Source of the DNA: Pseudomonadota bacterium
GTDB taxonomy: Bacteria; Desulfobacterota; Desulfobacteria; Desulfobacterales; UBA2156
NCBI GenBank assembly: GCA_043806755.1
Contig: JAZDGS010000023.1
Location: 1 to 61,310, forward strand
Reading direction: 5' to 3'
DNA length: 61,310 bases
The translations under genes and the position numbers were made by a program. This document shows, piece after piece, positions 340 through 50,994 of the stretch. The notes beneath the pieces are model-generated. The model saw nothing but the letters and a program-made list of their open reading frames with translations. It ran no database searches and was not told where the DNA came from. Within the stretch, counting starts at the first letter, position 1, and each line of letters starts with the position of its first letter.

Positions 340-527
340 TTCCCCTCCTTATGTTGTCGGTTAATTTTACATGTTTCCTGTTTTAACATCGGATTGTGCG
401 CTATGATCAAACAGATGACCCATTGTCTGCTTTTAAAATGGTTATCTATCCCGAAAAACCGCTCCGGAGTCAAGGTCAAACCGTAATCAGATAGACCGGT
501 TCGGCTTCAACGAGCCGGGGAACGGTT

Positions 528-779
528 TTATTTCTGACGAATCGCTCCGAAAATAATGAAGAGCAAACCGAGCGCCCCTACAAGAATGTAGAGAGGGGTT
601 GTAATTAAAAAATTGAGATATGAGATACCTTCGATTAAATGAGTGTTCATGAGATCGTACAGGTAAAGCGTTTCGGAGGCCTCTTTTTTTTCCATTAAAT
701 TGGCCAATGCCTGGTTTCCAAGGATCAAGAGAGCCGCCAGCACACAGATGAAGCCGAAAATAGTCCGTTTATTTATCAT
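528..779 (-). CDS. Small hypothetical membrane protein (two hydrophobic segments)
   Basis: 83-aa ORF with a GGAG-like RBS, hydrophobic N- and C-terminal stretches, same strand as its neighbours. Confidence 0.6.
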   Translation of the reverse strand: MINKRTIFGFICVLAALLILGNQALANLMEKKEASETLYLYDLMNTHLIEGISYLNFLITTPLYILVGALGLLFIIFGAIRQK

Positions 780-848
780 CTCCGTCTCCCAAATCCAATG
801 GTCTTAAATGCGGTACGACCATCAAATCGCATGGTGAAGGATTCGACA

Positions 849-1322
849 TTATGAATCGGGCATTTCTTCGAATGTTAATTCATGTTCAATGTGAATGCAG
901 CCGATGATGCTTTGGGCTGCGGGGCACCGGATTAAATAATTATTGAGCGCCTCGTATGCATCCTCCTTTTGTTCCTTCGGAGCTTTAAGGAAATGGTGTA
1001 CCTTGATGCGGGTTATTTTAAGAACACCATCCACATCTTCAATGTCTCCGGCGACTTCGGCCCTGAATAAATCGTTGAATGTTCGGATCTTTTTTCCGGC
1101 CAAAACCGTGGCCAGTGTCCCCATCATTCACCCGCCCACGGCACCCACAATATGATCCAGGGTGGCGGCATGCTCTTCCTCCGGTTCGACCCGGTAGAAT
1201 TTCTTGATACCTCCGTGGACTCCATAATAGACCGGATCCTTAAATCCTCTAATGATGGCTTTTCGGGTCGGGCCTTTTTCCCGGGTAATAGTGATGTGAG
1301 ACGTATGGACGACTTTTTTCAT
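849..1322 (-). CDS. OsmC/Ohr-like selenoprotein (157 aa; UGA at 1128-1130 read as Sec65)
   Basis: ORFs 1128..1367 and 849..1127 are in the same frame, separated by a single TGA. The joined protein reads ...LDHIVGAVGG-U-MMGTL...IRCPAAQSI, so the UGA occupies the first OsmC catalytic Cys position and the second CP motif is present. AAGGAG RBS precedes the ATG at 1322, and a SECIS-like hairpin lies downstream of the UGA. Confidence 0.88.
1096..1115 (-). promoter_or_regulatory. Putative bacterial SECIS element
   Basis: mRNA reads UGA-AUGAUGGGGACA-CUGGCCA-CGGUUU-UGGCCGG: a 7-bp stem (one G-U pair) starting 12 nt after the UGA, with a GGU-containing apical loop. Confidence 0.8.
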
Positions 1323-1383
1323 ATGCTCCTTTTCTTTTTTCCGTGCGTTAGTGAAAGGTTGCAGCAATTATAAATGGAAACCG

Positions 1384-1842
1384 TCAAACGGTTGTTGCCG
1401 ATCGTTTTTTCAGCCCGTTCACTAGTGTGGTGATAATCTCTTTTTGAACCTGGCTTTTAAATTGAAATTTCAACCCAATCCCCTCTGATGTGGTTCGAAC
1501 GATTTTGGCCGGTATTTTGAATGGATTTTGTTCATCAGGAAAATTAATCCTGAGAAAGATCTCTTCTCCTACCTGAAATGCTCCTTTTGATACCATGAAT
1601 ACACCGCTCGGGCTGATATCACGTGCATAATCGGTTATCGCCCGGTCCAGGTTCACATAATCTATGGCAATGGTATATGTTTTTCGCTGATATTCCCTCT
1701 CTTCCAGGGATATGTCCCTATTTTTCATCGTCTTTTCGATGTTGGCCAGGAGGACAAAGCGTTCTTCTTCAGTCATCTGATGGATCAATTCCAGGATACG
1801 ACCCAGGACATCATAATGATTTTTTTGAGCATCTTTTTCCAT
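1384..1842 (-). CDS. PilZ domain protein (putative c-di-GMP receptor)
   Basis: RxxxR motif (REYQR), D/NxSxxG motif (DISPSG), and a C-terminal GIGLKF strand. Confidence 0.88.
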   Translation of the reverse strand: MEKDAQKNHYDVLGRILELIHQMTEEERFVLLANIEKTMKNRDISLEEREYQRKTYTIAIDYVNLDRAITDYARDISPSGVFMVSKGAFQVGEEIFLRINFPDEQNPFKIPAKIVRTTSEGIGLKFQFKSQVQKEIITTLVNGLKKRSATTV

Positions 1843-1927
1843 AAAACCTCACCTGTTCGCTGGTACAAAGGAGCCGAACCGTTTGAAAAGAAGTCGATAG
1901 AGTGAAGAAGAAAATCAAATTGAACTA

Positions 1928-1956
1928 AATATAAAAAAAACTCGGAAAAGAGTCAA
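1928..1956 (-). promoter_or_regulatory. Putative sigma70 promoter for the PilZ gene
   Basis: TTGACT-17 nt-TATATT on the minus strand. Confidence 0.55.
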
Positions 1957-1959
1957 GAA

Positions 1960-2835
1960 TTAAAGCGTATCGGTTTTCATCGGGCGTATTTCTGCTATCA
2001 CCATGCCAAGAAATATGAGCCCGCCGCCGGTGAGATGGCTCATTAAAAAAGGCTCGTTTCCGAAAAAATGGGCAAACAACGCTCCGAAAACCGGCTCACC
2101 CGTAAATATCAGGGCCGCCCGCGCCGCCGGGGTTGTTCGCTGGGCATAGGTCTGAATGATATAAGCAAATACCGTGCACAGCAATACGGTTACGATAACC
2201 GCAGTCCATGCTTCAGAAGGGATGTTACAGGTGATCCCGCCGGAGGTGATCGACAGCAACAGGCCTAATACGGCGCTCACGCCCAACTGCCATGTGACTA
2301 GTGCCAACACATCAAATTTCGGTGCATAGCATCCGGTCAGGAGGATGTGAAGCGCGACGGCCACTGCACAAAAAAAGATTAACACATCCCCGAAATTCCA
2401 CGTAGACGGAGCCCCTCCAACTAAGATATAAAGACCGATAAATGCCGCCAGTATGCCAAGGGCTGCCGATGGGGCGGGAAAGCTCCTGAAAAAAACCGCA
2501 GAAAAAATCGGCACCAGCACAACATTCAGGCCGGTGATGAATGCACCGTTGGTGGCGGAAGTCAGCGTCAGCCCCCAGGTTTGAAAGGCAAAGGATGCAA
2601 AAAGGAGGATCCCCAACAAAGAGCCGGCTTTAATCGTGGGCCAGTCCAAGTGCCGAAGGCGTCTTGGAAACAAAAGGATCATCAGGAGGAACGCCAGTCC
2701 GAATCGGGTGGTTAAAAAAGAATAGACATCCACCACAGCCACGGCGTTCTTGACCAGGATGAATGTAGACCCCCAGAAAAAGGTCACAAGAAGCAACATG
2801 AAATCCATGACAAGCTGTCTGGCGCGTTCCGTCAT
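1960..2835 (-). CDS. DMT/EamA family transporter
   Basis: About 10 TM helices; FWGSTF, FQTWGL, FITGLNVVLVP and GEPVFGALF motifs; two EamA repeats. Confidence 0.92.
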   Translation of the reverse strand: MTERARQLVMDFMLLLVTFFWGSTFILVKNAVAVVDVYSFLTTRFGLAFLLMILLFPRRLRHLDWPTIKAGSLLGILLFASFAFQTWGLTLTSATNGAFITGLNVVLVPIFSAVFFRSFPAPSAALGILAAFIGLYILVGGAPSTWNFGDVLIFFCAVAVALHILLTGCYAPKFDVLALVTWQLGVSAVLGLLLSITSGGITCNIPSEAWTAVIVTVLLCTVFAYIIQTYAQRTTPAARAALIFTGEPVFGALFAHFFGNEPFLMSHLTGGGLIFLGMVIAEIRPMKTDTL

Positions 2836-5478: not shown

Positions 5479-8400
5479 ATGCCGGAAGAGAATCGAAAAA
5501 CAATCAAGCGGAGCAAAAAACGCCTTATTTTCAAAGCTGTTCTTGTATCCGTCTTTTTTATCATCTTTTTTGTCCTGGCGATGCTCGCCGCTCTCCCGTA
5601 TCTGGTATCGACTCAGTATGCTAAATCCCTGGCTCAAACCGCCGCATCCCGTTTGGTCGAAAGAGAGATTCGGCTGGATCGGATCGGATTCAAATGGAGT
5701 CAGGGGATCTTTATTGAGGGGCTTCGATTGTCGGACGACGCAGCGTTTTCAACGTCACCGATGGGAACGATCAAGTCGATCCATCTCAGAATGAATTTTT
5801 TAAAAGCTCTTACCGGACGATTAAACCGTGCCGACCTGGATATCGGAGGGGTGTCGCTTCAGGTGATTCGAAACACCGAAGGGGCGACCAATCTGAACCG
5901 GTTCATTTCAAACCTCAAGAAGGAAAACAATCCTCCAATCCAACAAAAAAAACCCAAAAACGAAAAGCTCCTTTTCATGCCGCTTTCGATCAGGACCGGT
6001 GTCACCATCCGGGATATTTTCATCGGCATCGATGACCGGATGCAACGCCGTCAAATCGAATTTCATCGCGGTTTCGTCAATTTGGATCTCCCCTCCTTTA
6101 ATCAGCCGCTGACCCTGTCGGTCTCATCACAGGTGAACATAGGGAAATGGTCGCTCCCGGAGGTGAAATTAACGATGACAGGGAGCAATATGTTCGATGC
6201 CAGGGGGGAAATCGACCTTCACCGCATCGACATCGATATGGAATTGCAGGCTCCCGGCATTCATGTCAAGGCAAAAGGAAATCCGAACGATGGGAAGATG
6301 TCAGGCCTGTTGCGGGCCGATCTTTCTGATTTTTTTCAAGTCGCATCCCCTTTTTTCCCGAAATCCTTGCAGCCGGAAACGATTCGCGGAACCCTGACAT
6401 GTGAACTGGATGCAAGCAGAATTTCAGCGGCAACGACTTTTTTCGATGTTCGCGTCGACGGAGATCGGATTTACTTAAACAAGAGCTCCTGGAACAGGGA
6501 TATAGGACCGCTTGATTTCCAAATCCACCATAACGGACGTTATGATTCGGAAAAAGGGGCCCTTTTTGTGGAGAGCGGTGAAATCCGGTTCCTCAATGTC
6601 AACCGTTTCTCATGGCACGGACGTCTTTATGACTTAAAGGAATCGAATCCCGGCGCAGCGGTGGAGATCGGGTCGCTTTTACTGGATCTCTCCAGTCTAC
6701 TGAATCCGGCCGTCCCTTTTCTGCCGAAACGGTTTTTTTTGGATATTCCTTCAGGTATTCAAACAAAAGGGCGCATCACATTGGAACATGCTTCCATCAC
6801 CGGAAACCTAAATGGAGGGAACCATCGTGTCCATATCAAAGGGCTTCGGATTGACGTTCCATCCGTTCGAGTCCGCGTGGATTCCCCAAATCCGGTCGAT
6901 CTTTCCATGGATCGTATCGATATTAACTTATTGAGCGTGGAATCCCTGCTAAACGATTTCTTTCCGAACCAGCTCAAGGTGCATTCCCGTTTGGCCATTG
7001 ATCGTCTTGACGTAAAGGGGGAAAACCCTGTTTCAATCAAAGGCTTTCAAATCCCAGAACTTCGCTTTAGCGCAGACAGGATTCGACAAATCAAATCCGT
7101 ACCCCTTGGGATCACTGCTCTTTTTTCTTTAATCGGATCTTTCCGGTGGAATGAGGCGATGATCCCGCCTTTTATCCGAACAGGCCGAACGACCCAACAC
7201 ATCGATATGACCGGAACGATTCTTCCGGGAAATGTGGCAGAGTTGACGTTAAACGGCTATGAAATCATCGCATCAGAGCCGAAGCTTGCATATGGGGATC
7301 TTGCTTTTTTTCCTTCAGTGATTCGGCTTTCATCAAAGGCGAATGGAATCCGGCTGAAACAATTGCATCCCTTAAATGCGGATATCGATCGGATTCAGTC
7401 GAATTTAAAAATCGATGATGATGCCCTGAAGCTCGATCTGGAGGCCGGGCTTTCCGATCTGGGGAAACGCCGGATGGCGAGCACCGGTAAAATGGCGATC
7501 GATTTAAAAAAGCTCCTGTCAAGGATCAGAGGAAATAAGACGGATGAAGGGCGCTTGAGCGGACGGATCGATCTGTTGTGGGATGCGGCAGGGCGGCTTC
7601 CGGCAGATACGAAACCCGCCGATCAAAACCTCCCCCTGGCAATCCTGTCGAATCCGCTTCCTGACCATTTGCATCTCACATGCAGATTGGAAAATATCTC
7701 GTTTGACCGGATATCGGATAAACAGATCCCTTTTCATTTTGGCCCTCTTTCAACCACCATGCCCCTTGAATATACATTCGACGGAAAAACAGGTAAGGGG
7801 AAGATCGGAGCTTCATTTCTGGCAAAAAAAATTGATTCCGGTCTCTTTTTGGGTAAAGAACAACCACTTGCCGGCAAACCTATTGATCTGACGGTGAACA
7901 TTTCCGGAGAGCATCACCGGCTCAACTCGATGGAGCTTGCGCAATCACTCGTTATCGAGCCTTTTGGAATCAGCCAAACCTTCCGATCCTCGATCCATGG
8001 GTTGGAGCGGATTCTTTTTGCAAAAAACGACGTTCCGTTGGTTTCGTGGTTAAACGAGCTAAGCGGAAACGGAAAGGTTACGGTCCGGATTCCGGACGCC
8101 GGCATTCTATCCGGTTTTTTCAACGGGATCCGCCTTCAGGGAAAAATGAGCGCCGAAGCCGAAGCCGAGCTGATCCCTAAAAAGAGCTTGACTGTCAAGG
8201 GGTGGACAGGAAGCGACGGGTTGGATATTACGGTCGGGGAATCCGCCTCGATTGAAGACCTTAACATCAACTTTGGATTTCAAAAACATTATACGGTTTC
8301 CGTCGACCCGCCGGCATCGACGTCAGAAACACGTTTGTCGGTGAAGGTGATGGAAGAAAACCCGTCGGTATCGTCTCATATCAATCCTGAAGGGGATGTT

Positions 8401-9111
8401 ATCTCCTCTCTTTCCGGGCAGTGGCAGAAACGCCTGGGTAAAAATCATACTTTTTCTTTGAATTCCGCGCGGATCGGGAAAGCGCCTCAATCGCTTCATA
8501 TGCACAAAACAGTAGTAGATCTGGAGCTGGAGGAAGGGATTCCGAAGATCACCTATTTCGAATCCGGCCTCCTTGGGGGAGCGATCATCGGCTCGGCATC
8601 CGTTTTCGAAAAAGGGGGGAACCTGTTTCTCCGATTCAGAACCTCCTTCTCTGCGTTAAACCCCGGAAAGCTTCTGCAGGGAATGGACAACAAACCGGAC
8701 AGCGAGGACTTGACGATCAGCGGACGGATATCGGTTTTAGCCCCCCTGTCGGTCCGCTTGCCGTCGATTCTAAAAGAACTCGATCTTGATCTTCAGTTCA
8801 ACCACATCGGCTCCGGCGCCATGAGGGAAATACTCCATATCCTGGATCCTCATGAGCATAACGAAACCATTATATCCATCCGCCGGTTGATTCGCACCGG
8901 GATTCCCAGATGGATTGAAATCAATGTCAAAAACGGAATTTTGTCTCTAAACGGGGAAGTGATCATTAAAGGAGTACCCATAAAAATTCCAAGCCTCGAG
9001 CGCTTGAATCTATCCGATATTTCAGGCCTCGACCGTTACGAAAAAGGACTGAGAGGGCTTCTGCCGCTGATCGATATACTGACACTCGCTTCAAGGCGGA
9101 ATCTGCCCTAA
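5479..9111 (+). CDS. AsmA-like / YdbH-like intermembrane bridge protein
   Basis: 1210 aa; basic N-terminus plus one TM anchor; AsmA-like start (RNTEGATNL), long alternating beta-strand pattern, GLLGG...ISGRI near the C-terminus; lies upstream of a DUF1318-like lipoprotein. Confidence 0.7.
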   Translation: MPEENRKTIKRSKKRLIFKAVLVSVFFIIFFVLAMLAALPYLVSTQYAKSLAQTAASRLVEREIRLDRIGFKWSQGIFIEGLRLSDDAAFSTSPMGTIKSIHLRMNFLKALTGRLNRADLDIGGVSLQVIRNTEGATNLNRFISNLKKENNPPIQQKKPKNEKLLFMPLSIRTGVTIRDIFIGIDDRMQRRQIEFHRGFVNLDLPSFNQPLTLSVSSQVNIGKWSLPEVKLTMTGSNMFDARGEIDLHRIDIDMELQAPGIHVKAKGNPNDGKMSGLLRADLSDFFQVASPFFPKSLQPETIRGTLTCELDASRISAATTFFDVRVDGDRIYLNKSSWNRDIGPLDFQIHHNGRYDSEKGALFVESGEIRFLNVNRFSWHGRLYDLKESNPGAAVEIGSLLLDLSSLLNPAVPFLPKRFFLDIPSGIQTKGRITLEHASITGNLNGGNHRVHIKGLRIDVPSVRVRVDSPNPVDLSMDRIDINLLSVESLLNDFFPNQLKVHSRLAIDRLDVKGENPVSIKGFQIPELRFSADRIRQIKSVPLGITALFSLIGSFRWNEAMIPPFIRTGRTTQHIDMTGTILPGNVAELTLNGYEIIASEPKLAYGDLAFFPSVIRLSSKANGIRLKQLHPLNADIDRIQSNLKIDDDALKLDLEAGLSDLGKRRMASTGKMAIDLKKLLSRIRGNKTDEGRLSGRIDLLWDAAGRLPADTKPADQNLPLAILSNPLPDHLHLTCRLENISFDRISDKQIPFHFGPLSTTMPLEYTFDGKTGKGKIGASFLAKKIDSGLFLGKEQPLAGKPIDLTVNISGEHHRLNSMELAQSLVIEPFGISQTFRSSIHGLERILFAKNDVPLVSWLNELSGNGKVTVRIPDAGILSGFFNGIRLQGKMSAEAEAELIPKKSLTVKGWTGSDGLDITVGESASIEDLNINFGFQKHYTVSVDPPASTSETRLSVKVMEENPSVSSHINPEGDVISSLSGQWQKRLGKNHTFSLNSARIGKAPQSLHMHKTVVDLELEEGIPKITYFESGLLGGAIIGSASVFEKGGNLFLRFRTSFSALNPGKLLQGMDNKPDSEDLTISGRISVLAPLSVRLPSILKELDLDLQFNHIGSGAMREILHILDPHEHNETIISIRRLIRTGIPRWIEINVKNGILSLNGEVIIKGVPIKIPSLERLNLSDISGLDRYEKGLRGLLPLIDILTLASRRNLP

Positions 9112-9273: not shown

Positions 9274-9855
9274 ATGAAAAAACGATTCATCGTCGTCCTG
9301 GCTCTGCTTTGCGGATGTACGCTGGCAGAGGTTAAGGTGGACGTATTGAGCGAACGGACGGCCCTTGAAAATCAGATTCTCGGGACGTATAACACCCTTG
9401 ACCGTGAGATGTTGCTTCTGGCCTCGGTCCGCAGCGTCGATTCCTCCGGCCGTATCGCATCTCCACAAAAGCAGAGCCGGGAACATCAGGATGCCGTTTC
9501 CGCCATGCAGGTCCAGGCATTTCATTCCGACGATTTGCAGCTCTTTAAACGGCTTCAATGGGTGGGAGAAAACAACCACGGTCTTTTAACCATGTTTCCA
9601 ATGACACGGGAGAATATCCCTGATGATCTAAAGCCCCCTGCGATGCGATTCACCCAAGAAGAGTTCGAATCCGTGGTCTCTCAGATCAATGCCGCCAGAG
9701 AAACCATTATGGCGCGGGTCGTTTCGATGAACGAAACCATACCCGGCTCGGACCTTTCAAAAATCCGTGACATTTTCGGGAAACTCAATGCTGAAAACGC
9801 ACGCCCGGGAGAAAAAATTCAAACCGAAGACGGCAAATGGACAATTAAGAGATGA
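9274..9855 (+). CDS. YdbL/DUF1318-like lipoprotein
   Basis: Likely start at ATG 9274 (AAGGA upstream). Lipobox MKKRFIVVLALLCG-C; motifs RTALENQILG, VGENNHGLL, INAARETIM and GEKIQTEDGKW are typical of DUF1318. Confidence 0.75.
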   Translation: MKKRFIVVLALLCGCTLAEVKVDVLSERTALENQILGTYNTLDREMLLLASVRSVDSSGRIASPQKQSREHQDAVSAMQVQAFHSDDLQLFKRLQWVGENNHGLLTMFPMTRENIPDDLKPPAMRFTQEEFESVVSQINAARETIMARVVSMNETIPGSDLSKIRDIFGKLNAENARPGEKIQTEDGKWTIKR

Positions 9856-12800
9856 AAATCGCGAGTTCCATTTTTTTCATATTCTTTTGGTTACCGGGTA
9901 TTGCGGCGACGGCGGCCGATTCCATCCCCTCCATGCTCAATTCTCCGGTGCAAATCACCGCCGAAGCGGACCCTATCGAATACGCATCGGTTTCCGCGGA
10001 TGGAAAATACCTCGTTTATGTTTCCAGGCGTGAACAGTTCACGGATCTGTGGCTTCGTTCAGCCAACCCTTCGGTGGTCTTTTTCCCGAGACGCCTTACC
10101 GAAGATCCGGCTGAGGAGGCGACCCCCGCCATATCTCCGGATGGACGGTTTGTCGCTTACGTCGGGACCGGATACGATGTCAAGGGCGATATTTATCTTT
10201 TGGATTTAAGAGAGAAACAGCCGACACCCTTGCGTTTAACCGACAGGGAGACCGAAGACGGAGCCCCCTCTTTTTCCAGAGACGGAAGGCGAATCTATTT
10301 TCACCGGAAAAAGCCGGACGACCCGATTCGACGGATCGCCTTTATGGAGATCGGTCCGGAGCGGACCGTGAGTCGCCCGATTCCGCAGGTTCAGACCATA
10401 CCGTTCGATGGCGATGCCGCGTTTCCGTCTGTTTCCCCGGATGGATTCCGGATCGCATTTATCTCCTATCAGACAAGCCCTTCCGGAACCCTATTTGTCT
10501 TAGACTTAAAAACCAACACGGCAGCGCCGCTGACATCGGGACCCTATCCGGATTTTTTCCCCGCCTGGTCCAATGATGGCACATATCTCCTGTTTACCAG
10601 GAACGCATACGACACCAACAGCGACGGCATGATCGATACCAGAGACAACGCGGCCATATTCCGGATCAGTGTCGATGATGCCGAACCACACCCTTATCCA
10701 TTGACATCTGCCCGTTTTTCCTGCTCCCAGCCGATCCCTATCCCCAACGGGTTCTACTTTCTTTCCAACCGAAAAGGGGTGAGCAACGCCTGGTTTCTTC
10801 CCCCCGAAGGAGAGGTCCCGAACAGGGATCATCCCTTGGATCAACTGAATCTTGCCGATCGCATATCCGCGGATCTTCACCGCGATTCTTTTCTTGCGCA
10901 TGCCGCCTACGGCAGGGTTCTGGAACGATATCCAAATCGGGCCGATGTTTCGGCCCCCGCTGCGTATCGCCTCGGCAACTTGTTGTTAAAGATGAATATG
11001 CCCGACGAGGCTGATCATTCATATCAGCGGATCATCGACAGGTATCCCGGCAAGAATCCCGAATCCGATCTTTCGGCAATTCAACAAATCGTCATTCAAA
11101 CCACTCGTCGAATAAAAACCGTCCAAAACGAATCGGACCGGAGCCTCATCCTCCAGGAAGGGATTTCACGACTCAGTGATATCGTCACAGGGAAGGACCC
11201 GTTCATCGTTTCCGGCTCCCGAATTGAACGAGCCAGGCTTCTCATGGAGTTTTCCGGCCGGTCGTCCGATCTTCTTTTAGCGATCCGGTTTACCGAAGAT
11301 GTGATCGGGGACGCGCATTCAGCGCCGGATCAGATTGCCCAAGCCATGGTGATCAAAGGAGATATTTACGCCCGGATCGGAAAAGTTGAGAACGTCTATC
11401 CGATTTACCTTTCCATTCTTAAAACCTATCCCGGAATAGATCCCTGGGCGGATGCCGCGTTGAAGCGTCTGCTGGATCTTGTCATTTCTCAAAAAGCAGC
11501 CTCTTTTTCAGGCGACACGATCGGCCTGTTCCGGAAAATCGCGGATGACAACCGGAAGGAGGTTCCGATCCTTTCCGCGGGTGCATTGAACCGGATCGGC
11601 GACCTGTACTATGAAGCCGGCGAATGGTCGAAAGCCAAGAGCGCTTACGAACAGGTCCTCGAACAATTTCCAACTTCAACGCCTCAGACGGCGGCCGCCA
11701 GGCTGGCCCTTGCCGAGATCTTATATAAGGAAGAGAGGTTTCGCTCAGCCCTTGATCTGTATGAAAAAGAGATCCGAAATCGGCCTGAAGACGATCGAAT
11801 CTACGCTCTTGCCCGCAGAGGGTATATTCAAAAATCGATTGAAGGTGGAAAATACCTTTTTCAACTGGGAGAAATCCACACGGCAAGAAAAGTATTTAAG
11901 GAGATGATCGATTTTGACGATACCATCGTCGCCGCTCATAGGGGATACATTCAGTGCGCTGCCGCCCAACAGGATCTGAAAGGGGTGTTGAGATCCTACC
12001 GGGTGAAAATGAAGAAAAATCCGAATGATGCCGTCGCCGTTTATGCGGTTGCCTTGATCCTCACCTACCTCGAAGATCAAAGATCCCTTGAAGAAGCGAA
12101 AGCCCTGTTATTGCGGGCGATCACCATCAACGGTCAGATTGAATATTTTCATCAGACCCTTGGATACATCCAGGAAGTTCTTGAAACGGCATTCCACCGC
12201 TCCGGCCGGCTGGAGACGGCGCTGGATTCCTATCAAAAAGCCTATTTTCTAAACGACCCGGTACAAAACCCGTCCAATCATGCTGATCTACTTCTCAATC
12301 TGGGAAACGTTTATTTTCTTTTGGGGCAAAATGCCAAGGCCTTCCATTTTTTCAGCGAACGCCTCAATACCGGAAAACCGTTTCCTCACTCCAGCGCTGC
12401 GGTTCTATTTTACAAGCGGCTGGGGATGAGCGCTTTTCATGTGAGGGAAAGCGAAAAAACCATCAACGCGTTTGAAAAAGCGATCGAATTGATCGACAAG
12501 GGGGTGAACCAACCGGAGGTCTCACATTACCTGGATCGAAATCACCGGTATGTGATGGATCAGATCCTTCCGGCCGTTGAACAAAACGGTCGTCTCTCCG
12601 GGAAGGTGAAAGAGATTGCCGAACAACAGTCCGAAACCGGCCAGTCCCTTTCCGGGCTTATTCAACATTATGCCCCTCCTCCATCAACGGAATGGCGGGT
12701 ATTTCAGAAAGGCGTCGAAAAACTGATCGATAATCAAGAAAAGATCAACGACAAGGCGATCCTTCTCCTGAAGGGACGGCCGATCCAAGGCGCTTCCGGT

Positions 12801-15800
12801 CGGCCGGATCCGGAAGAGGCGCAACGGATGATGACGGTGATGACATCAAAGGCCAAAGACGCCGTGCGGTTTTCCGAAAAAATGATCGGCCTGAAAGCCG
12901 AACTTCTTGATCGACTTGGGCTGGTATATCAGGACTCAGGTGCCTTTGAAAAGGGCGTCGCTGCTTTCGAAAAAACGATGGCGTTAAACGAGAACCTGGG
13001 TCAGTTCAAAAACCTTTCCAGGAATAAACGATCCATCGCCTATAACCGCTACCTTCTGGCGAACACCCTTTCGGGTGATCGCCGGAGAGCGGAATTAAGA
13101 AAGGCCATAACCGATTTTCAGGAGACCCTTTCCCTCTTGGACCGCTACGGCGTTCCGGATCCATCCGAAACCGGCGGAAAGGGATTGCAGCAGATCGACC
13201 TGCGGATGGCCGTTGATGAAAGCGATACGACGGAAGCGGGAAAAGGATTTTCGAAAGAGCAGGAAAAACGGCTCGCTGAATCCTTTATTGCACGGATCAG
13301 CCTCGAGTTGGGAGATGTCAATTCAGCCGAAAAAGCGCTCATGGAGCAATTGGCGTTCTATCAAACCAAACAACAGATCTCGGACCGGGATGCCTTCGGC
13401 GTTTCCCTCCTGTATCATCGGGCAGGCCATATTAACAGCGCCAAAGGAGATTGGACAGGGGCATTTAACCATTTCAGGCAATCGGCTGTCCTGTCGCTCC
13501 AGATTAAAAATACCGCCAACGCCGCCATTAGTGCCGTCAACATGGCCAAAGCCCTCTCAATTCTTTTCGTTGCCGGGTCCGAACACATTCAATTTGAAAG
13601 AGAACTTGAATCGATCGACAATGAGGTGCTTTATCTCTTTTCTCAACCGGCTCTAGCGCCGCCCAAACCGGCTCAGGCCGATTATCACAATGCATTGGGA
13701 TTCTATCTGGCTAGACACAATCGGATGCCCAAATCCGATCTGAAACATGCCGCCACTGCCGCACGGCTTTTGCAAAGAGCCGGAATCCATTTTGCCGCCG
13801 GAATCCGGTTGCTCGAAGGAGAGGCGACGATCCGCAGCCGGAAGGAGATCGCTCTTTATTCAAGCCTGAACCTCAATATGGCCGCAATCGCACTTGATAT
13901 GGGCGATATGTCGACCGCCTATGCGCTTTACGAAAAAGCACTTGCTCTATCCGAGGCCGGACTTTTGCCGGACATCCGCTGGCGGGCCCTGATCGGACTT
14001 GGGCGACCGGATGAAGCCATCAAGGTCTTAGAATCGATTACCATTCTGCGCGCCGGATGTTCCGAGGGCGAAATCATTGAGGCGTTTGAGAAAAAGGCGG
14101 CTGATCTTATTGCTGAAAAACGGTTTGAAGAGGCGTTCAATTGGATTGAACGGCTATCTGATATCGAACGGTTTCATCGCCTGGCATCATTGATCAATCC
14201 GTTTTCGGAAAATGAACGGCTGCTGTTTAGAAAGATCTTCACTCAGCTGAACCGGATTCATGAACTAAAACGCGAGATTTCCTCACCGGACCCCCAGGGG
14301 AGACGACTTTTTTCCCAACAACTGAAGCTCGAAGAAGCACATCTCCAGGACCTTCTGGGTAAAAATAATAAAAATATACCTGATCTGATCAGGCTTCTCC
14401 CGGAACAGAAATTTCAAGAGCAGGCCATGATGCTGGTCGGTATCGCTTCTGAAGCTGAATCCGCCGCGGACGACTATGTTCAACACGGGAGGCCGGCAGA
14501 CCTTCTTATGAAATACGAAAAACTGGTTGCCCAATATAAGGAACAAATAGAGAGCGCTTTGGCATCTGCAGAGAGTGATTCAAGGTCAAACCCCATCAGC
14601 CTTTTCGGCCCACAGCGTTTTGAGGCCGTAGATGTCATGGATCATCTTCCCGAAGGGACGACATTTATCCGGCTATTTCAATTCAAGCATGGTCAACGCT
14701 CTTCGGAAAAGCGTGCACTCTCCTTCATTCTGGATCCGGATCGGTTAGGCATCTCCTTTTGGGGTTCCATTTCAGAGGCGCTATCGAATTCGAAGATTCA
14801 AAAAACAGGCAACCATCCGGTCTACATCGCCTATGACCATCTCGACGAACTGTCGCCCGAAGCAATCGAGGCGGCGAATCCGGATGCATTCGTATTAAGT
14901 GCCGGCCATTTCATCCGATCTGCGATCAGCAAAAAGCCGTTTAAGCGATCCGTTTTTGCGATTCCGGAGTTATCACAACCGTTTCGTGCTTACGAGGTTT
15001 TGAAAGAACCGGATCCTTCAGATCCGGAGTCGGACCGCTTTCCGCAAGGATTTCATACCCTGATCCTTTCCGCACCGGTCTCACTTACCCATACGGTTCC
15101 AACGCGTCCGGGAGAATCGGCAATCCCTTCTGCCGTCGTGGATCGTGAGAGTGGAAAACGAACGGACATCTTCGAACTTCTCGGCCGTCTTTCCCAAAGT
15201 TCGCTTTCCATTGTTTCAAATGCATCCCCTGGAAATGCTTACTGGGTCGGACATTTATTTTCGATTTTCGGCTGCCCCACCATCATCCTTGCGTTAACAC
15301 CCGATGCCGACGGCGCATTCGTCAACTCCTTTTTAGATCGATATTCGCAGAGTTCGGCGCTCGAGGCGATCCGTGGAGCCAAAGCGCCTCCGGGCGGGAA
15401 AAGCCATTGGCTCCTTCTCGGGAATCCCGGCATGTCGCCTGGGGATGCAACAGTGTTTGCCCGCAAGCATTTTATCGCCTATGTTCAAAAAGCGAAAAAA
15501 GCTTACGAAAATCAAGCTCCGGCCGAAGCCCTTTTGCATTTTGAAAACGCCATCCTGATCGGATCCGAAGCGGATTCATTCGAGACTTATCGCCCTGCCC
15601 TTTACCAGTATGCCCGTGAGAGCGCTCATCAGGCGGGAAACCGGGAAAAGGCCCTGTATTACGCACAGGCCCTTGTTCAATGGCTGGGCGGGAAAAAATC
15701 CGGCACCGACGCCCACGCCGAAGCGCTTCTCCGACTGGGCCTTCTCCAGGCTCAATCGGAGATGTTTAACACGGCGGTGGAAACGTTGAACCGATCCCTT

Positions 15801-18317
15801 GGCATTTACGCCACTCTAAACATGACGCCCCGGCAGATCGAAGCCCTATCAGGACTAGGCGTTGTTTCCGAACAGGCAACCGAATATGATCGCGCGCTCT
15901 CTTTTTTTCAGTCGGCCGCCTCCTTAAGCCGGTCTTCCGATCAGAGAGACCATCTGGCGCGGCAATATACGAACATCGGACGGCTCCACGATCTTCGGTT
16001 GAGCAACTACATCCCGGCAATTGAAAATTATCAAATAGCCCTCTCGCTTTACCGGGAAATGAATACCGGAAACCAAAAAAGAGCGGATATATCCCAATCC
16101 CTGCTGAACATTGGACGCTGCCATCGCCTCCTCGGCAACCTGATCCAGGCTGAGAAGACCTTTGACGAGGCTCTGTCCAGCATCGGGCCTGAATCCTTGC
16201 ACCCGGAACTGTATACAAAAATCGTCATCGAACAGGCCAATAACGCGTGGTACAGGGCCAACTATGAAGACGCCTTTAAGAAACAACGCACCGCCCTGCG
16301 GATCGCACGGGAAAAAAATCTACCGTTACTGCAGGTCGTTTCTCTGAATACGGCCGGTCTTTTGTGGTGGACTCTTGGGGAAAATCAAAAAGCTCTTGAC
16401 GAACTGAAGGAAGCGCTCTCTTTGGCTGAAACACTTCGGGTTCGGGAGGATGAAATTGCCACAACGTTGAATAATATCGGATTCGTGCGCCGTGAAATGG
16501 GACATTACCAGGAAGCGCTAAAGTACTTTGATGAAGCCATCACCATCGACCGGAGGCTGAAATCAAGATGGGCCTTGGCCTACGATTTTCGGCATAAAGG
16601 AGTGACGTTGGCCAGAATGGGGGACATTCAAAGAGCCCTTCCCCTGTTAAAAAGCGCTCTCGAAGAAGCGGCGGCTATCGGAAACCGGATCAACGAATCG
16701 AGATCCCAGCTCGATTTGGGAGATGCCTTCTTTGCCGGCGGAAACTTTCGTGAGGCGGAGACCGCCTATCAGGCGGCATTGTCCCTTTCGCGCTCCATCG
16801 CTTTGCGTGAGGTCGAATGGCGCGCTTTATATGGACTCGCTATGCTCCGGCTGCCCGGAAAGCCGGATGAAGCAAAACCTCTTCTGATTGAGGCGATGGA
16901 TATGATCGAAACGATCCGTTCGAATATCCGGTTGTCCCAGCTTAAAGACAGCTTCCTCACTAATAAACTGGCTGTTTATGAAACGCTTTGCCGGCTTTTT
17001 GCCGACTCCGGCGATGCCGAAAAAGCATTCGAGATCGCCGAGCGCTCCCGTTCCCGAAATTTCATCGATCTTTTGGGAAATCAACGGCTGACCTTAAGCC
17101 GCACCGTCGATCAGCAGTTGTATCAGCGACAGTTGAAGCAAAACGAGCAGATAGAAGAACTGACGGCCCGCCTTCTGCAGGTGCAAAATTCCAATGATCG
17201 GAGAAGATATGAAGCCGCCCTTGCTTCGGCAAAACGTGAATTGAATACCCTGATGCTTGAAATTCAATCCAAAAACCCTCAACTGGGATCCCTGGTATCG
17301 GTTGAGCCGATGAGTGCGAAGGAACTCGTCAAGATCGTCGAACCGGATACGGCGCTTCTTGATTATTATATTCTGAATGAAGAGCTGTTCTGCTGGCTTA
17401 TTCAGTCGAATGGAATCCGCTTATTCCGCACTCCCATAAACCGGGAAGTACTGGGATCGTCCATACTCGATTATCGCCGGCGTATCCAAAACCTGGAACC
17501 TTTCGAAGACCTCTCGAAACTTCTTTTCAAAAAGCTCCTTTCGCCGGTTTCCAAGCATCTTGACGGAATCAAGATGCTTGGAATTATTCCTTACGGGTAT
17601 CTTCACTACCTGTCGTTCGCCACGTTATCAGATGGAAACGATTATCTGATCGATCGCTTTCCGCTGTTTTATCTTCCGAGCGCCGGGGTGTTCAAATACA
17701 CGATGGCCAAACGGGTCGCTCAAAAAAAATTAAGGGTACTCGCAATCGGAAACCCGGATCTCGGAGATCCTGCCTTTGACCTCCCCTTTTCCGAATATGA
17801 GGTTCACTCCATGAAGTGGAATTTCCCGGACATCACCATTTTGACCCAAGAACGTGCGACCGAGAAATGGGTCGTTGACAATATCGGAAAATTTGGAATA
17901 ATTCACCTGGCATCGCACGGGGAATTTAATCCCATTAATCCCCTTTTTTCATCGGTTAAACTTGCCAGGGATATCGAACGGGATGGGAACCTGGAAGCCG
18001 CTGAAATTTTTGGACTCAATATCGATGCGGATATCGTGGTCTTAAGCGCCTGTCAGACAGGACTTGGAAAGGTGACTCAAGGAGACGATGTGATCGGATT
18101 GACCCGGGCGTTTCTCTATGCCGGAACCCATACCCTTATATCCAGTCTATGGCGAGTCAGCGATATTTCAACCGCCATATTGATCAAAGAATTCTATCGC
18201 CAATATGCTCAGACCGCTAAAGGAATCGGGTTAAGGAATGCCGTATTACATGTTAAAAACCGCTACCCGCATCCGGGATACTGGGGAGCGTTTACCCTGA
18301 TTGGAGACTATTACTGA
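9852..18317 (+). CDS. Giant exported PD40/TolB beta-propeller + TPR + CHAT (caspase-like) protease, 2821 aa
   Basis: Signal-peptide-like N-terminus; repeated P(A/S)xS(P)DG PD40 motifs; many TPRs; C-terminal CHAT with IHLASHG (His2689) and VVLSACQTG (Cys2734), SLWRVSD and HPGYWGAF. ATGA overlap with the upstream gene. Confidence 0.9.
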   Translation: MKIASSIFFIFFWLPGIAATAADSIPSMLNSPVQITAEADPIEYASVSADGKYLVYVSRREQFTDLWLRSANPSVVFFPRRLTEDPAEEATPAISPDGRFVAYVGTGYDVKGDIYLLDLREKQPTPLRLTDRETEDGAPSFSRDGRRIYFHRKKPDDPIRRIAFMEIGPERTVSRPIPQVQTIPFDGDAAFPSVSPDGFRIAFISYQTSPSGTLFVLDLKTNTAAPLTSGPYPDFFPAWSNDGTYLLFTRNAYDTNSDGMIDTRDNAAIFRISVDDAEPHPYPLTSARFSCSQPIPIPNGFYFLSNRKGVSNAWFLPPEGEVPNRDHPLDQLNLADRISADLHRDSFLAHAAYGRVLERYPNRADVSAPAAYRLGNLLLKMNMPDEADHSYQRIIDRYPGKNPESDLSAIQQIVIQTTRRIKTVQNESDRSLILQEGISRLSDIVTGKDPFIVSGSRIERARLLMEFSGRSSDLLLAIRFTEDVIGDAHSAPDQIAQAMVIKGDIYARIGKVENVYPIYLSILKTYPGIDPWADAALKRLLDLVISQKAASFSGDTIGLFRKIADDNRKEVPILSAGALNRIGDLYYEAGEWSKAKSAYEQVLEQFPTSTPQTAAARLALAEILYKEERFRSALDLYEKEIRNRPEDDRIYALARRGYIQKSIEGGKYLFQLGEIHTARKVFKEMIDFDDTIVAAHRGYIQCAAAQQDLKGVLRSYRVKMKKNPNDAVAVYAVALILTYLEDQRSLEEAKALLLRAITINGQIEYFHQTLGYIQEVLETAFHRSGRLETALDSYQKAYFLNDPVQNPSNHADLLLNLGNVYFLLGQNAKAFHFFSERLNTGKPFPHSSAAVLFYKRLGMSAFHVRESEKTINAFEKAIELIDKGVNQPEVSHYLDRNHRYVMDQILPAVEQNGRLSGKVKEIAEQQSETGQSLSGLIQHYAPPPSTEWRVFQKGVEKLIDNQEKINDKAILLLKGRPIQGASGRPDPEEAQRMMTVMTSKAKDAVRFSEKMIGLKAELLDRLGLVYQDSGAFEKGVAAFEKTMALNENLGQFKNLSRNKRSIAYNRYLLANTLSGDRRRAELRKAITDFQETLSLLDRYGVPDPSETGGKGLQQIDLRMAVDESDTTEAGKGFSKEQEKRLAESFIARISLELGDVNSAEKALMEQLAFYQTKQQISDRDAFGVSLLYHRAGHINSAKGDWTGAFNHFRQSAVLSLQIKNTANAAISAVNMAKALSILFVAGSEHIQFERELESIDNEVLYLFSQPALAPPKPAQADYHNALGFYLARHNRMPKSDLKHAATAARLLQRAGIHFAAGIRLLEGEATIRSRKEIALYSSLNLNMAAIALDMGDMSTAYALYEKALALSEAGLLPDIRWRALIGLGRPDEAIKVLESITILRAGCSEGEIIEAFEKKAADLIAEKRFEEAFNWIERLSDIERFHRLASLINPFSENERLLFRKIFTQLNRIHELKREISSPDPQGRRLFSQQLKLEEAHLQDLLGKNNKNIPDLIRLLPEQKFQEQAMMLVGIASEAESAADDYVQHGRPADLLMKYEKLVAQYKEQIESALASAESDSRSNPISLFGPQRFEAVDVMDHLPEGTTFIRLFQFKHGQRSSEKRALSFILDPDRLGISFWGSISEALSNSKIQKTGNHPVYIAYDHLDELSPEAIEAANPDAFVLSAGHFIRSAISKKPFKRSVFAIPELSQPFRAYEVLKEPDPSDPESDRFPQGFHTLILSAPVSLTHTVPTRPGESAIPSAVVDRESGKRTDIFELLGRLSQSSLSIVSNASPGNAYWVGHLFSIFGCPTIILALTPDADGAFVNSFLDRYSQSSALEAIRGAKAPPGGKSHWLLLGNPGMSPGDATVFARKHFIAYVQKAKKAYENQAPAEALLHFENAILIGSEADSFETYRPALYQYARESAHQAGNREKALYYAQALVQWLGGKKSGTDAHAEALLRLGLLQAQSEMFNTAVETLNRSLGIYATLNMTPRQIEALSGLGVVSEQATEYDRALSFFQSAASLSRSSDQRDHLARQYTNIGRLHDLRLSNYIPAIENYQIALSLYREMNTGNQKRADISQSLLNIGRCHRLLGNLIQAEKTFDEALSSIGPESLHPELYTKIVIEQANNAWYRANYEDAFKKQRTALRIAREKNLPLLQVVSLNTAGLLWWTLGENQKALDELKEALSLAETLRVREDEIATTLNNIGFVRREMGHYQEALKYFDEAITIDRRLKSRWALAYDFRHKGVTLARMGDIQRALPLLKSALEEAAAIGNRINESRSQLDLGDAFFAGGNFREAETAYQAALSLSRSIALREVEWRALYGLAMLRLPGKPDEAKPLLIEAMDMIETIRSNIRLSQLKDSFLTNKLAVYETLCRLFADSGDAEKAFEIAERSRSRNFIDLLGNQRLTLSRTVDQQLYQRQLKQNEQIEELTARLLQVQNSNDRRRYEAALASAKRELNTLMLEIQSKNPQLGSLVSVEPMSAKELVKIVEPDTALLDYYILNEELFCWLIQSNGIRLFRTPINREVLGSSILDYRRRIQNLEPFEDLSKLLFKKLLSPVSKHLDGIKMLGIIPYGYLHYLSFATLSDGNDYLIDRFPLFYLPSAGVFKYTMAKRVAQKKLRVLAIGNPDLGDPAFDLPFSEYEVHSMKWNFPDITILTQERATEKWVVDNIGKFGIIHLASHGEFNPINPLFSSVKLARDIERDGNLEAAEIFGLNIDADIVVLSACQTGLGKVTQGDDVIGLTRAFLYAGTHTLISSLWRVSDISTAILIKEFYRQYAQTAKGIGLRNAVLHVKNRYPHPGYWGAFTLIGDYY

Positions 18318-49469: not shown

Positions 49470-50129
49470 CTAAGCGCCGACCATGTTGTAACTCGACGAT
49501 TTATAACCATGAACTTTTTGGACGTGGAAAACCAATATCCGACTTTCATAATTTTCGATCAGTCGCTTTAATCCCAGTCTGGCCATCCTGAATGTTTTGC
49601 TTTGCAGATTTTCGACAAGCCGGTTGATTTCCTGAGCCCGTCCTTCACAAATGATATGGGGTCCATCTCCGATGAGAACTTCCCATTCTCCGGCCATGGT
49701 GATCCCTAATTTTTCAAGGCAGGGGTAAAACTCCTCTGTCACATATTTTTCATATTCATCCTTTTTACGGCTGTCGATATCCCATAACTGATTGAATTTA
49801 ATCGTGTTTTCCTTAACATCGATCGAATATGTTTCTTTCTTGCCGGTGTTGACCAAGACTTTTGTTTTATATTTTTTAATGTAATTTTGAAGTTCATGAT
49901 TTAATTCTTTGTATTTTTGATCTCTTAATGCTTTCTCCAGAAGCTCAAGGTCGTTTGTGACTCCTTCAAAGATGATCTCAGTATAGCCGCCGACAAGAAT
50001 GCACCAGCCTGCCACTGTATGGATCCCAAGTTGATTGATCCCCGGAACGAATTTTTGGATGATAAATTTTTCATATTCCTTTACTTTATCATGATCCACC
50101 GTCCAGTATTGGTTGAATTTGACCGGCAT
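49470..50129 (-). CDS. Hypothetical protein with a tandem duplicated ~105-aa domain (NIPSNAP-like)
   Basis: KFNQYWTVDHDKVKEYEKF...LGIHTVAGW is repeated as KFNQLWDIDSRKKDEYEKY...LGITMAGEW; AGGAGG RBS. Confidence 0.75.
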   Translation of the reverse strand: MPVKFNQYWTVDHDKVKEYEKFIIQKFVPGINQLGIHTVAGWCILVGGYTEIIFEGVTNDLELLEKALRDQKYKELNHELQNYIKKYKTKVLVNTGKKETYSIDVKENTIKFNQLWDIDSRKKDEYEKYVTEEFYPCLEKLGITMAGEWEVLIGDGPHIICEGRAQEINRLVENLQSKTFRMARLGLKRLIENYESRILVFHVQKVHGYKSSSYNMVGA

Positions 50130-50205
50130 CGTCCGATCCTCCTTTCATGCTTGGAATATGTGATTTGTCTTAATCGTCCAACCCCCTTCCCTTAAAAGAG
50201 CGGGG

Positions 50206-50994
50206 CTACCGAAGGGTTCCGGCTGCAGGAGCAATAAGGGAATGAAGCATCCACCAGAATGCTTTTGCTTTATTATAACAGTTGATGCATTGAGAATGGG
50301 CACACTCCTCGCTGCAGGAAGGACATGCATGAGTTTCACACCATGAAGAACACCATTCACACCAGTCGCTTCCGTCCGGAAAGTAATTTCCATCCGGGTC
50401 GTAACTCTCAATATCGGCGAAATCAAAGAGCACTTTCTGATTTGCCGTGCAAAAGGACCGGATCATCTGATTGTTGCCGTACAGGGTTCCAATAGGGCCG
50501 GATCCGTCAAGATGGCCGGTCATGTAAACAAAAGTCACATGGGGATAATCGCGTTCGAGCTGATTCATCCGGTTCAGATAATCGTTGACTTCATGGGGAG
50601 CATATCCTGAAAGCTGGCCGCACCACGACCAGATTACCAAGTTGGTCTGCGGATAGGTCCCTAAATAGGTCCGGGTTTTCGTCTCCCATTCCGGATACCC
50701 CAGGTCGGGATCATCCTCGTAAATGAGAGGCCGATCGTAGCGGCCGGGAAAGAGCGTATCATCTTCGCTTTCAAGAAGGCCCATGCCGGTAACGACCTGA
50801 CTTCCATGCGAGGTATGCCCGTAATAGATAGAAAAGTGAGCCCGGATCTGATCGAAACGGTCTACCGAGATGAGGGGGAACTGGGTTACGGCCTGATGAT
50901 CTACAACAACAAGGGCGGCTTGCACGGCCGGACTTCCGGTAGCGCAACAGAGTGCTGTGGCAACAAAAACGCACTTCCACCATTTGATACTCAT
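50206..50994 (-). CDS. Secreted hypothetical protein with a Cys-rich C-terminus
   Basis: AGGAGG RBS before the ATG at 50994; signal peptide ending AVQA; motif-like blocks YGHTSHGSQ, WSWCG, YMTGH, FDFADIESYDPDG and CAHS. Confidence 0.75.
   Translation of the reverse strand: MSIKWWKCVFVATALCCATGSPAVQAALVVVDHQAVTQFPLISVDRFDQIRAHFSIYYGHTSHGSQVVTGMGLLESEDDTLFPGRYDRPLIYEDDPDLGYPEWETKTRTYLGTYPQTNLVIWSWCGQLSGYAPHEVNDYLNRMNQLERDYPHVTFVYMTGHLDGSGPIGTLYGNNQMIRSFCTANQKVLFDFADIESYDPDGNYFPDGSDWCEWCSSWCETHACPSCSEECAHSQCINCYNKAKAFWWMLHSLIAPAAGTLR

Follow-up and report, generated by a model that had tools for sequence, protein, structure and literature searches.

An in-frame UGA followed by a conserved hairpin points to an OsmC-like selenoprotein in Thermodesulfobacteriota

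What does a single in-frame TGA mean when it separates two open reading frames (ORFs) that together spell out an OsmC-like protein: the end of one gene and the start of another, the scar of a broken gene, or a codon for an amino acid? This question is raised by a locus on the minus strand of contig JAZDGS010000023.1 (GenBank assembly GCA_043806755.1), from a bacterium deposited under Pseudomonadota and placed by GTDB in the Desulfobacterales (UBA2156), of which positions 1 to 61,310 were analysed (61,310 nucleotides, hereafter “the window”). An ORF at 1128..1367 closes with the TGA at 1130..1128, and a second ORF in the same frame, 849..1127, opens at the very next codon, ATG 1127..1125; counted from an ATG at 1322, the pair 1322..1131 and 1127..849 is parted by this one TGA. 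A first-pass annotation, made from the letters of the sequence only, had proposed that the pair hides a selenoprotein of 157 amino acids with UGA at residue 65, preceded by a ribosome-binding site and followed by a hairpin of the selenocysteine insertion sequence (SECIS) type. The two ORFs, the 157-residue product of read-through from ATG 1322, the AAGGAG at 1331..1326 before this start codon and the stem CUGGCCA/UGGCCGG with loop CGGUUU at 1115..1096, 12 nt past the UGA, were all found as that annotation described them. From the evidence given below we conclude with high confidence that 1322..849 is one functional gene for a protein of the OsmC/Ohr fold, with its codon 65, a UGA, translated as selenocysteine (Sec). 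The features of the gene, all on the minus strand, are as follows.

849..1322, minus strand: putative OsmC-like selenoprotein gene, complete, 157 amino acids, with start ATG 1322..1320, in-frame UGA and stop TAA 851..849 (read-through translation, Pfam, AlphaFold2 model)
1326..1331, minus strand: Shine-Dalgarno-like AAGGAG, 3 nt before the start codon (read from the sequence)
1128..1130, minus strand: UGA codon 65, presumably Sec, at the first conserved Cys position, taken as peroxidatic (TGA conservation, Cys homologues, alignment with 1ukk and 1qwi)
1096..1115, minus strand: SECIS-type hairpin, 7-bp stem CUGGCCA/UGGCCGG and loop CGGUUU, 12 nt after the UGA (minimum free energy (MFE) fold, RNAalifold, synonymous-site constraint)
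1105..1107, minus strand: GGU at the hairpin tip, nt 24-26 counted from the U of the UGA (G, G and U each in 80 of 81 sequences)
924..926, minus strand: TGC codon of Cys133, putative resolving cysteine (kept in 31 of the 33 distant homologues; aligned with the CPV Cys in structures of OsmC)

The read-through product has the context GAVGG-U-MMGT around residue 65 and, further downstream, IRCPAAQS with Cys133, and its homologues begin with MG(E/K)(V/I)VHTS at the ATG equivalent to that at 1322. Scanning a single genome for each species gave 585 confirmed relative loci, and the counts of genome loci reported here cover the best 80 of these 585. At the codon aligned to residue 65 each of the 80 loci, which have 67-78% protein identity to the window protein, carries TGA. 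They represent many independent assemblies, mostly metagenome-assembled genomes (MAGs) of Desulfobacterales, Desulfobacteraceae and Syntrophobacterales, and include one from a cultured organism, Desulfosarcina cetonica JCM 12296 (L072). The scan also showed that the gene is present on complete chromosomes (CP070735.1, CP070689.1, CP070768.1, CP070652.1 and CP070692.1). The alignment of the window sequence with the 80 loci (81 sequences) is ungapped, contains exactly one stop in each sequence and reveals purifying selection on both halves of the gene. Among 33 distant full-length homologues residue 65 is Cys in 27 (A in two; W, D, S and G in one each) and Cys133 is kept in 31, and in the 16 close full-length homologues from the protein collection residue 65 is Cys in eight and Trp in eight. 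Judged from these alignments, the pairing of a conserved UGA with Cys homologues is the classical signature of a selenoprotein and rules out both an error of sequencing and a pseudogene of recent origin; that the two ORFs are one gene interrupted by a UGA, as had been proposed, is confirmed. We infer from it, with very high confidence, that the product of the gene is a selenoprotein and that Sec is inserted at residue 65.

The joined product is also recognizable as a member of a known protein family. The Pfam OsmC model (PF02566) matches residues 56-147, straight across the stop, with 39.5 bits (cutoff 27.5; E=7.8e-10). An AlphaFold2 model based on 34 sequences has a mean predicted local distance difference test score (pLDDT) of 97.5 and a predicted template modelling score (pTM) of 0.89, and the predicted fold is that of OsmC/Ohr: Foldseek found 63 PDB matches at E<=0.001, headed by 2onf and by Ohr and OsmC chains (probability 1.00); template modelling (TM) scores against OsmC/Ohr structures lie at 0.64-0.85, the highest being 0.77 by query and 0.85 by target. 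In the family profile residue 65 falls on the first conserved Cys of OsmC from T. thermophilus (1ukk) and E. coli (1qwi), the place where the UGA had been expected from the sequence, and Cys133 aligns with the CPV Cys of the same two proteins; we take these two OsmC positions to be the peroxidatic and resolving cysteines. The close family possesses, in addition, a set of invariant N-terminal residues (Y33, H36-G37-G38 and F42-Y43), all outside the Pfam match, which starts only at residue 56.

A second line of evidence is provided by the RNA downstream of the UGA. ViennaRNA folds precisely the 7-bp stem CUGGCCA-CGGUUU-UGGCCGG, and the RNAalifold consensus for 72 nt around the TGA in the 81 sequences independently yields the same seven pairs, with 95.9% of the cells paired. 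In an alternative apex an invariant U (column 38) is bulged and two further pairs are formed below a GGU triloop, with 93.4% of 640 cells paired, so that the apex is either a hexaloop xGGUxx, as in the RNAalifold consensus, or a GGU triloop on two additional base pairs. A control in which the pairing partners were slid reached at most 52.5% paired cells for the triloop version and at most 52.7% across both structures. Changes on both sides of the stem occur in three pairs (25-44, CG/UA; 31-37, GC/AU/UA; 32-36, CG/UA/GC), and the covariation score of the triloop version was matched by none of 500 shuffles. The strongest evidence for a functional RNA element is, however, a freezing of synonymous sites that is confined to the hairpin. 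Over 44 conserved four-fold codons the third-position entropy is 1.1-1.95 bits except at codons 69, 71, 73 and 75, where it is 0.80, 0.19, 1.02 and 0.10 bits; Leu70 and Leu74 end in G in every sequence (Leu55 has 1.77 bits), and at codon 72 the amino acid varies (majority Thr, 36%) yet the third base is G in 80 of the 81 sequences. According to the accessible text of two earlier papers (PMC1088965, PMC8659212), a bacterial SECIS is a stem-loop near the UGA with a small apical loop that holds a conserved G (and U), a description that also applies to the window hairpin with its G+C-rich stem of 6-7 bp. The SECIS proposed in the first-pass annotation is thus borne out by conservation, covariation and synonymous-site constraint, and the hairpin would, to judge by these patterns, act as a bacterial SECIS, with binding of SelB predicted.

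Several observations weigh against this reading. The hairpin of the single window sequence is, on its own, unremarkable and within chance: its MFE is -19.5 kcal/mol, whereas shuffled sequences average -15.06 (z = -1.51), and 18 out of 200 of these were at least as stable. Few independent events underlie the covarying pairs, the U-A state of pair 32-36 coming from one clade of 14 rows in a quick tree, and the shuffle statistics consequently overstate the evidence from covariation. Rfam yielded no match for the whole window at the gathering threshold; under permissive settings 1030..1180 produced two chance matches, both on the wrong strand, but none to a SECIS family. The family is not covered by any NCBIfam model, and the best hit, to the SACOL1771-family peroxiredoxin, stayed below threshold (15.8 bits vs a cutoff of 166). 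In the 61-kb window, to which the search was confined, there is no tRNA, and comparison of its 44 ORFs with NCBIfam identified no selA, selB or selD. The A, D, S, G or W at residue 65 in six of the 33 distant homologues indicates that a redox residue at this place is not always needed by the fold. Trp is written at residue 65 in half of the close full-length homologues (P0003, P0005, P0007, P0009, P0014, P0016, P0017 and P0018). Finally, the gene neighbourhood is not conserved: the synteny of the window, with genes for a PilZ-domain protein, an EamA transporter, a GAF protein and an 83-aa membrane protein beside the gene, recurs in four of the 80 loci. With regard to the Sec machinery, no tRNA-Sec was encountered in the flanks of the 60 loci (of the 80) that were scanned, where the only tRNA found was a tRNA-Arg(CCT). 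In favour of the selenoprotein reading, reviews, in the sections accessible to us, count the Thermodesulfobacteriota among the most selenoprotein-rich bacteria.

The Trp in close homologues is the argument for a decoding of the UGA as a standard amino acid (Trp or Gly), by an altered genetic code or by leaky read-through, and the first-pass annotation had named a non-Cys residue such as Trp at this position among the observations that would tell against a selenoprotein. Trp is indeed written in the eight protein records, but the codon TGG does not occur at the site in any of the 80 genome loci. All eight Trp rows derive from contigs of 0.9-4.6 kb, whereas some of the Cys rows come from longer ones, of 18 and 44 kb, and in the quick tree, which left out the fragmentary P0017 and P0018, they are intermixed with the Cys rows, P0004 (Cys) and P0007 (Trp) being sisters; a Trp at the active site of a Cys enzyme would, moreover, render it inactive. 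Metagenome gene callers can translate TGA as Trp (code 4) on short contigs. In view of the short contigs, the lack of TGG in the 80 loci and the intermixing with Cys rows, the Trp rows probably represent TGA translated as Trp by such a caller, although TGG variants are possible; set against the 80 loci, the Trp-form proteins have best identities of 60-72%, with no close match that shows the codon. The stops of the 44 picked ORFs of the window (TGA 19, TAA 17, TAG 8) imply, with 19 ending at TGA, a standard genetic code in this organism, and table 11 leaves its long housekeeping ORFs uninterrupted. We regard decoding as an ordinary amino acid as extremely improbable. A pseudogene or an error of sequencing or assembly, which a lone in-frame stop in an otherwise intact gene resembles in that a fresh nonsense mutation would look the same, is less credible still and in our judgment already refuted, since the same stop recurs in all 80 independent assemblies at the protein identities given above and both halves of the 81 ungapped sequences, each with its one stop, are under purifying selection.

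A genuinely split gene, in which translation stops at UGA65 and restarts at AUG66/67 so that pieces of 64 and 92 amino acids assemble without residue 65, would fit the classic stop-start arrangement at the site, where the TGA is followed by ATG ATG in 77 of the 81 sequences and by CTG ATG in four, and the databases do contain proteins ending at residue 64 (45 of the best 150 representatives) or starting at residue 66/67 (21). Such fragments would, however, be produced by any gene caller at a Sec codon, and Met66-Met67 also occur in the Cys-form full-length homologues (CMMGT), which explains the ATG codons after the TGA by the protein sequence. The residue missing from the split protein would be exactly the conserved Cys found in 27 of the 33 distant homologues, the third positions of Gly63 and Gly64 vary freely (entropy 1.30 and 1.26), from which it follows that no ribosome-binding site is conserved there, and the conserved GGU hairpin would be without a role. 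This explanation seems to us very unlikely. Much more plausible is a selenoprotein, and the remaining alternative concerns what it does: Sec65 and Cys133 could serve thiol-disulfide exchange or the handling of persulfide or selenium, with the N-terminal Y33, H36-G37-G38 and F42-Y43 setting the substrate. This would agree with the low identity to characterised OsmC/Ohr proteins (8-18% in the Foldseek matches; best PDB profile E-value 7.8e-07), with a top structural match, 2onf, that is an uncharacterised structural-genomics protein, with the position of the invariant HGG and FY motifs outside the Pfam match and with the lack of a lipoyl or thioredoxin gene as a conserved neighbour in the 80 loci. 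On the other hand, the two conserved cysteine positions are retained with the same spacing as in OsmC, the gene stands beside a rubrerythrin gene or an Rrf2 regulator in two separate clades, and a basic residue, R20, is conserved (R/K in most rows, judged by eye), as a basic residue is in OsmC/Ohr. We therefore consider such a different redox role a real but rather unlikely alternative.

For the selenoprotein, the reduction of hydroperoxides is the role that we moderately favour, on grounds of homology to the OsmC/Ohr family. In the mechanism that we propose, the intragenic hairpin, which follows the UGA after 12 nt and bears the conserved GGU at its tip, would serve as a bacterial SECIS that recruits SelB and Sec-tRNA(Sec) to the ribosome paused at the UGA, leading to insertion of Sec instead of termination. 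In the folded protein Sec65 would occupy the place of the first conserved, presumably peroxidatic, cysteine of OsmC/Ohr; its selenolate would attack a hydroperoxide and reduce it, leaving a selenenic acid, which Cys133 would capture as a selenenylsulfide that is then recycled by a dithiol reductant. The peroxidase chemistry, a homodimeric state and the dithiol reductant are all assumed here after the example of characterised family members.

Rubrerythrin and Rrf2 regulators are linked to peroxide and redox stress, and both occur next to the gene, each in a part of the 80 loci, which lends the peroxidase role some support:

~280-950 nt after the TGA, same strand: rubrerythrin-linked loci L010, L012, L015, L016, L017, L020, L021, L026, L032, L038, L049, L058
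upstream, same strand: Rrf2-linked loci L001, L003-L006, L011, L013, L014, L019, L023, L027, L028, L030, L048

The rubrerythrin gene (PF02915 plus a rubredoxin-like domain) starts ~15-20 nt past the stop in most of its 12 loci, and in 12 of its 14 loci the gene of the Rrf2-family regulator (PF02082) stops ~13-20 nt short of the start codon. The two sets of loci are disjoint, most of the 80 have neither gene, and no operon partner is general across them. In one clade, then, the rubrerythrin adjacency is suggestive of an operon for peroxide defence that the two genes share. In seven of the 60 loci scanned for tRNA genes (L003, L004, L005, L019, L023, L027 and L028), all within the Rrf2-linked clade, a tRNA-Arg(CCT) lies on the opposite strand, ~2.6-3.0 kb upstream of the TGA.

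The TGA-bearing gene also occurs in two MAGs labelled as lying outside the Thermodesulfobacteriota, one of Candidatus Methylomirabilota (L067) and one of Pseudomonadota (L062). This reflects either lateral spread of the gene or noise in binning or labelling. A Methylomirabilota MAG with 63 predicted selenoproteins is mentioned in the accessible part of a 2026 review.

The way in which this gene is represented in databases follows from its UGA. Of the best 120 relatives in a collection clustered at 90%, only 17 span residue 65 and 103 are proteins of ~90 amino acids that start at residue 66/67, several of which bear the NCBI names “OsmC family protein” or “OsmC family peroxiredoxin”. At 50% clustering, the best 150 representatives include 51 that cover the site, 45 whose last residue is exactly 64 and 21 whose first is 66/67. 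That standard gene callers would split the gene had been anticipated, and they evidently do. The truncated ~90-aa calls miss the active-site residue, with no NCBIfam model to rescue them; hundreds of records would be corrected by a family model built to span the UGA and the hairpin. A long antisense ORF covers the gene in 62 of the 80 loci and displaces both gene halves in a greedy longest-ORF annotation; the largest “cluster” of neighbours (62 loci), tried as an operon partner, turned out to be this same antisense artefact over the gene itself. For the anaerobic sulfate reducers, already known to be rich in selenoproteins, the gene adds a candidate for selenium-dependent peroxide defence, and its hairpin offers a clean, covariation-supported natural SECIS for the study of recognition by SelB.

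The remainder of the window is ordinary chromosome, with dnaE, guaB, rpsA, alaS and recA. A mechanical scan of it listed 39 same-frame ORF pairs separated by TGA. Besides the OsmC-like gene, one of these was followed up, 49470..50462 on the minus strand, split by the TGA at 50145..50147; it was rejected as a second selenoprotein, since the part before the TGA looks non-coding and no family matches either part. A promoter and terminator scan of 400..2000 gave results at chance level only. Elsewhere in the window three further genes were noted:

5479..9111, plus strand: ORF of 1210 amino acids with an N-terminus of the LIC_11026 family, preceding the ORF below
9852..18317, plus strand: ORF of 2821 amino acids with a TolB-like beta-propeller, many TPR matches and, at its C-terminus, a weak similarity to the TPR-CHAT protein Csx29
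55572..56744, minus strand: homocysteine-biosynthesis sulfur-incorporation enzyme (Pfam HcyBio, E=2e-157), a relative of “methanogenesis marker 16” in a bacterial context

How does this protein compare with the OsmC-like selenoproteins that have been described before? The family was reported from the Sargasso Sea with three sequences of COG1765 and the motif UxxT (Zhang, Fomenko and Gladyshev, 2005; PMC1088965), five sequences were added by the Global Ocean Sampling (GOS) survey in 2008, and reviews of 2022 and 2026 list the family (PF02566/COG1765, UxxT), as far as the accessible parts of these publications go. The statement of the first-pass annotation that such proteins have been reported in anaerobes does not hold for these sources: the published ones come from surface-ocean metagenomes, and for the deltaproteobacterial symbionts of Olavius no Sec and three Cys forms of OsmC-like proteins are given. 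Our literature search returned the marine family and reviews only, with no branch from the Thermodesulfobacteriota, although the supplements of surveys might list one; the word “OsmC” is absent from the main text of Kivenson et al. (2021; PMC8318568).

The marine Sargasso/GOS family, as its published excerpts present it, and the window protein have in common a bacterial OsmC fold, a UGA-encoded Sec (predicted in our case), probably at the first conserved Cys in both, and, just downstream, a SECIS hairpin with a G in the loop. A 137-aa Sargasso sequence, compared by eye only, also shares with the window protein the pattern A-x-L-x-x-I-V-x-x-x-G-x-U before the Sec. However, the marine motif is UxxT, with Thr at +3 (u-L-L-T in the Sargasso sequence, which is AT-rich), whereas U-M-M-G-T in the window protein puts Thr at +4 and departs from UxxT. 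The marine proteins, again from what is accessible of their description, are 137 amino acids long and assigned to COG1765 (YhfA-like), whereas the window protein has 157 amino acids, with an extra N-terminal part and the invariant HGG, and the former come from surface-ocean metagenomes and the latter from Thermodesulfobacteriota. A profile search gave seven PDB hits, with OsmC 1ukk at E=7.8e-07 and E. coli YhfA (1ml8) as the weakest at E=0.0063; 1ml8 also ranks seventh by structure. By sequence profile the window protein thus appears to be nearer to OsmC proper than to YhfA. With OsmC (1qwi/1nye, 1ukk) and Ohr (1n2f, 1zb9, 6eb4) it shares the predicted fold (TM 0.64-0.82) and two redox positions at the same spacing, but it differs from them in having, presumably, Sec for the first Cys, in an identity of only 10-18% and in the family-specific invariant residues in its N-terminal 50 amino acids.

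The geometry of the hairpin agrees with that described for E. coli, apart from some differences. The fdhF-type SECIS of E. coli is likewise a hairpin within the ORF, 11 nt from the UGA there (PMC8659212, accessible text) and 12 nt here. The E. coli element has G23 and U24 in its loop (same source), and the window hairpin carries GGU at its tip at nt 24-26. The bulged U of the E. coli element is, according to that text, on the 5' side, whereas the candidate here, the invariant U of column 38, is on the 3' side.

No new category is opened by these findings, as OsmC-like selenoproteins and the recoding of UGA are already established; the gene belongs to an already described kind of selenoprotein, possibly as a new subfamily. 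A more far-reaching view, which we put forward tentatively and to which we give slightly less than even chances, is that the Thermodesulfobacteriota protein represents a distinct, undescribed Sec-bearing branch of OsmC that gained its Sec separately from the marine UxxT proteins, that forms a peroxide-defence module with rubrerythrin or Rrf2 in some lineages and that uses a SECIS with a GGU triloop and a bulged U on the 3' side. Such a branch may be defined by its 157 amino acids, its U-M-M-G-T motif and its N-terminal HGG module, by its wide occurrence in sulfate-reducing and syntrophic Thermodesulfobacteriota, where all 80 of the species-level genomes analysed, from 585 candidate loci, carry the TGA, and by its systematic annotation as an “OsmC family protein” of ~91 amino acids.

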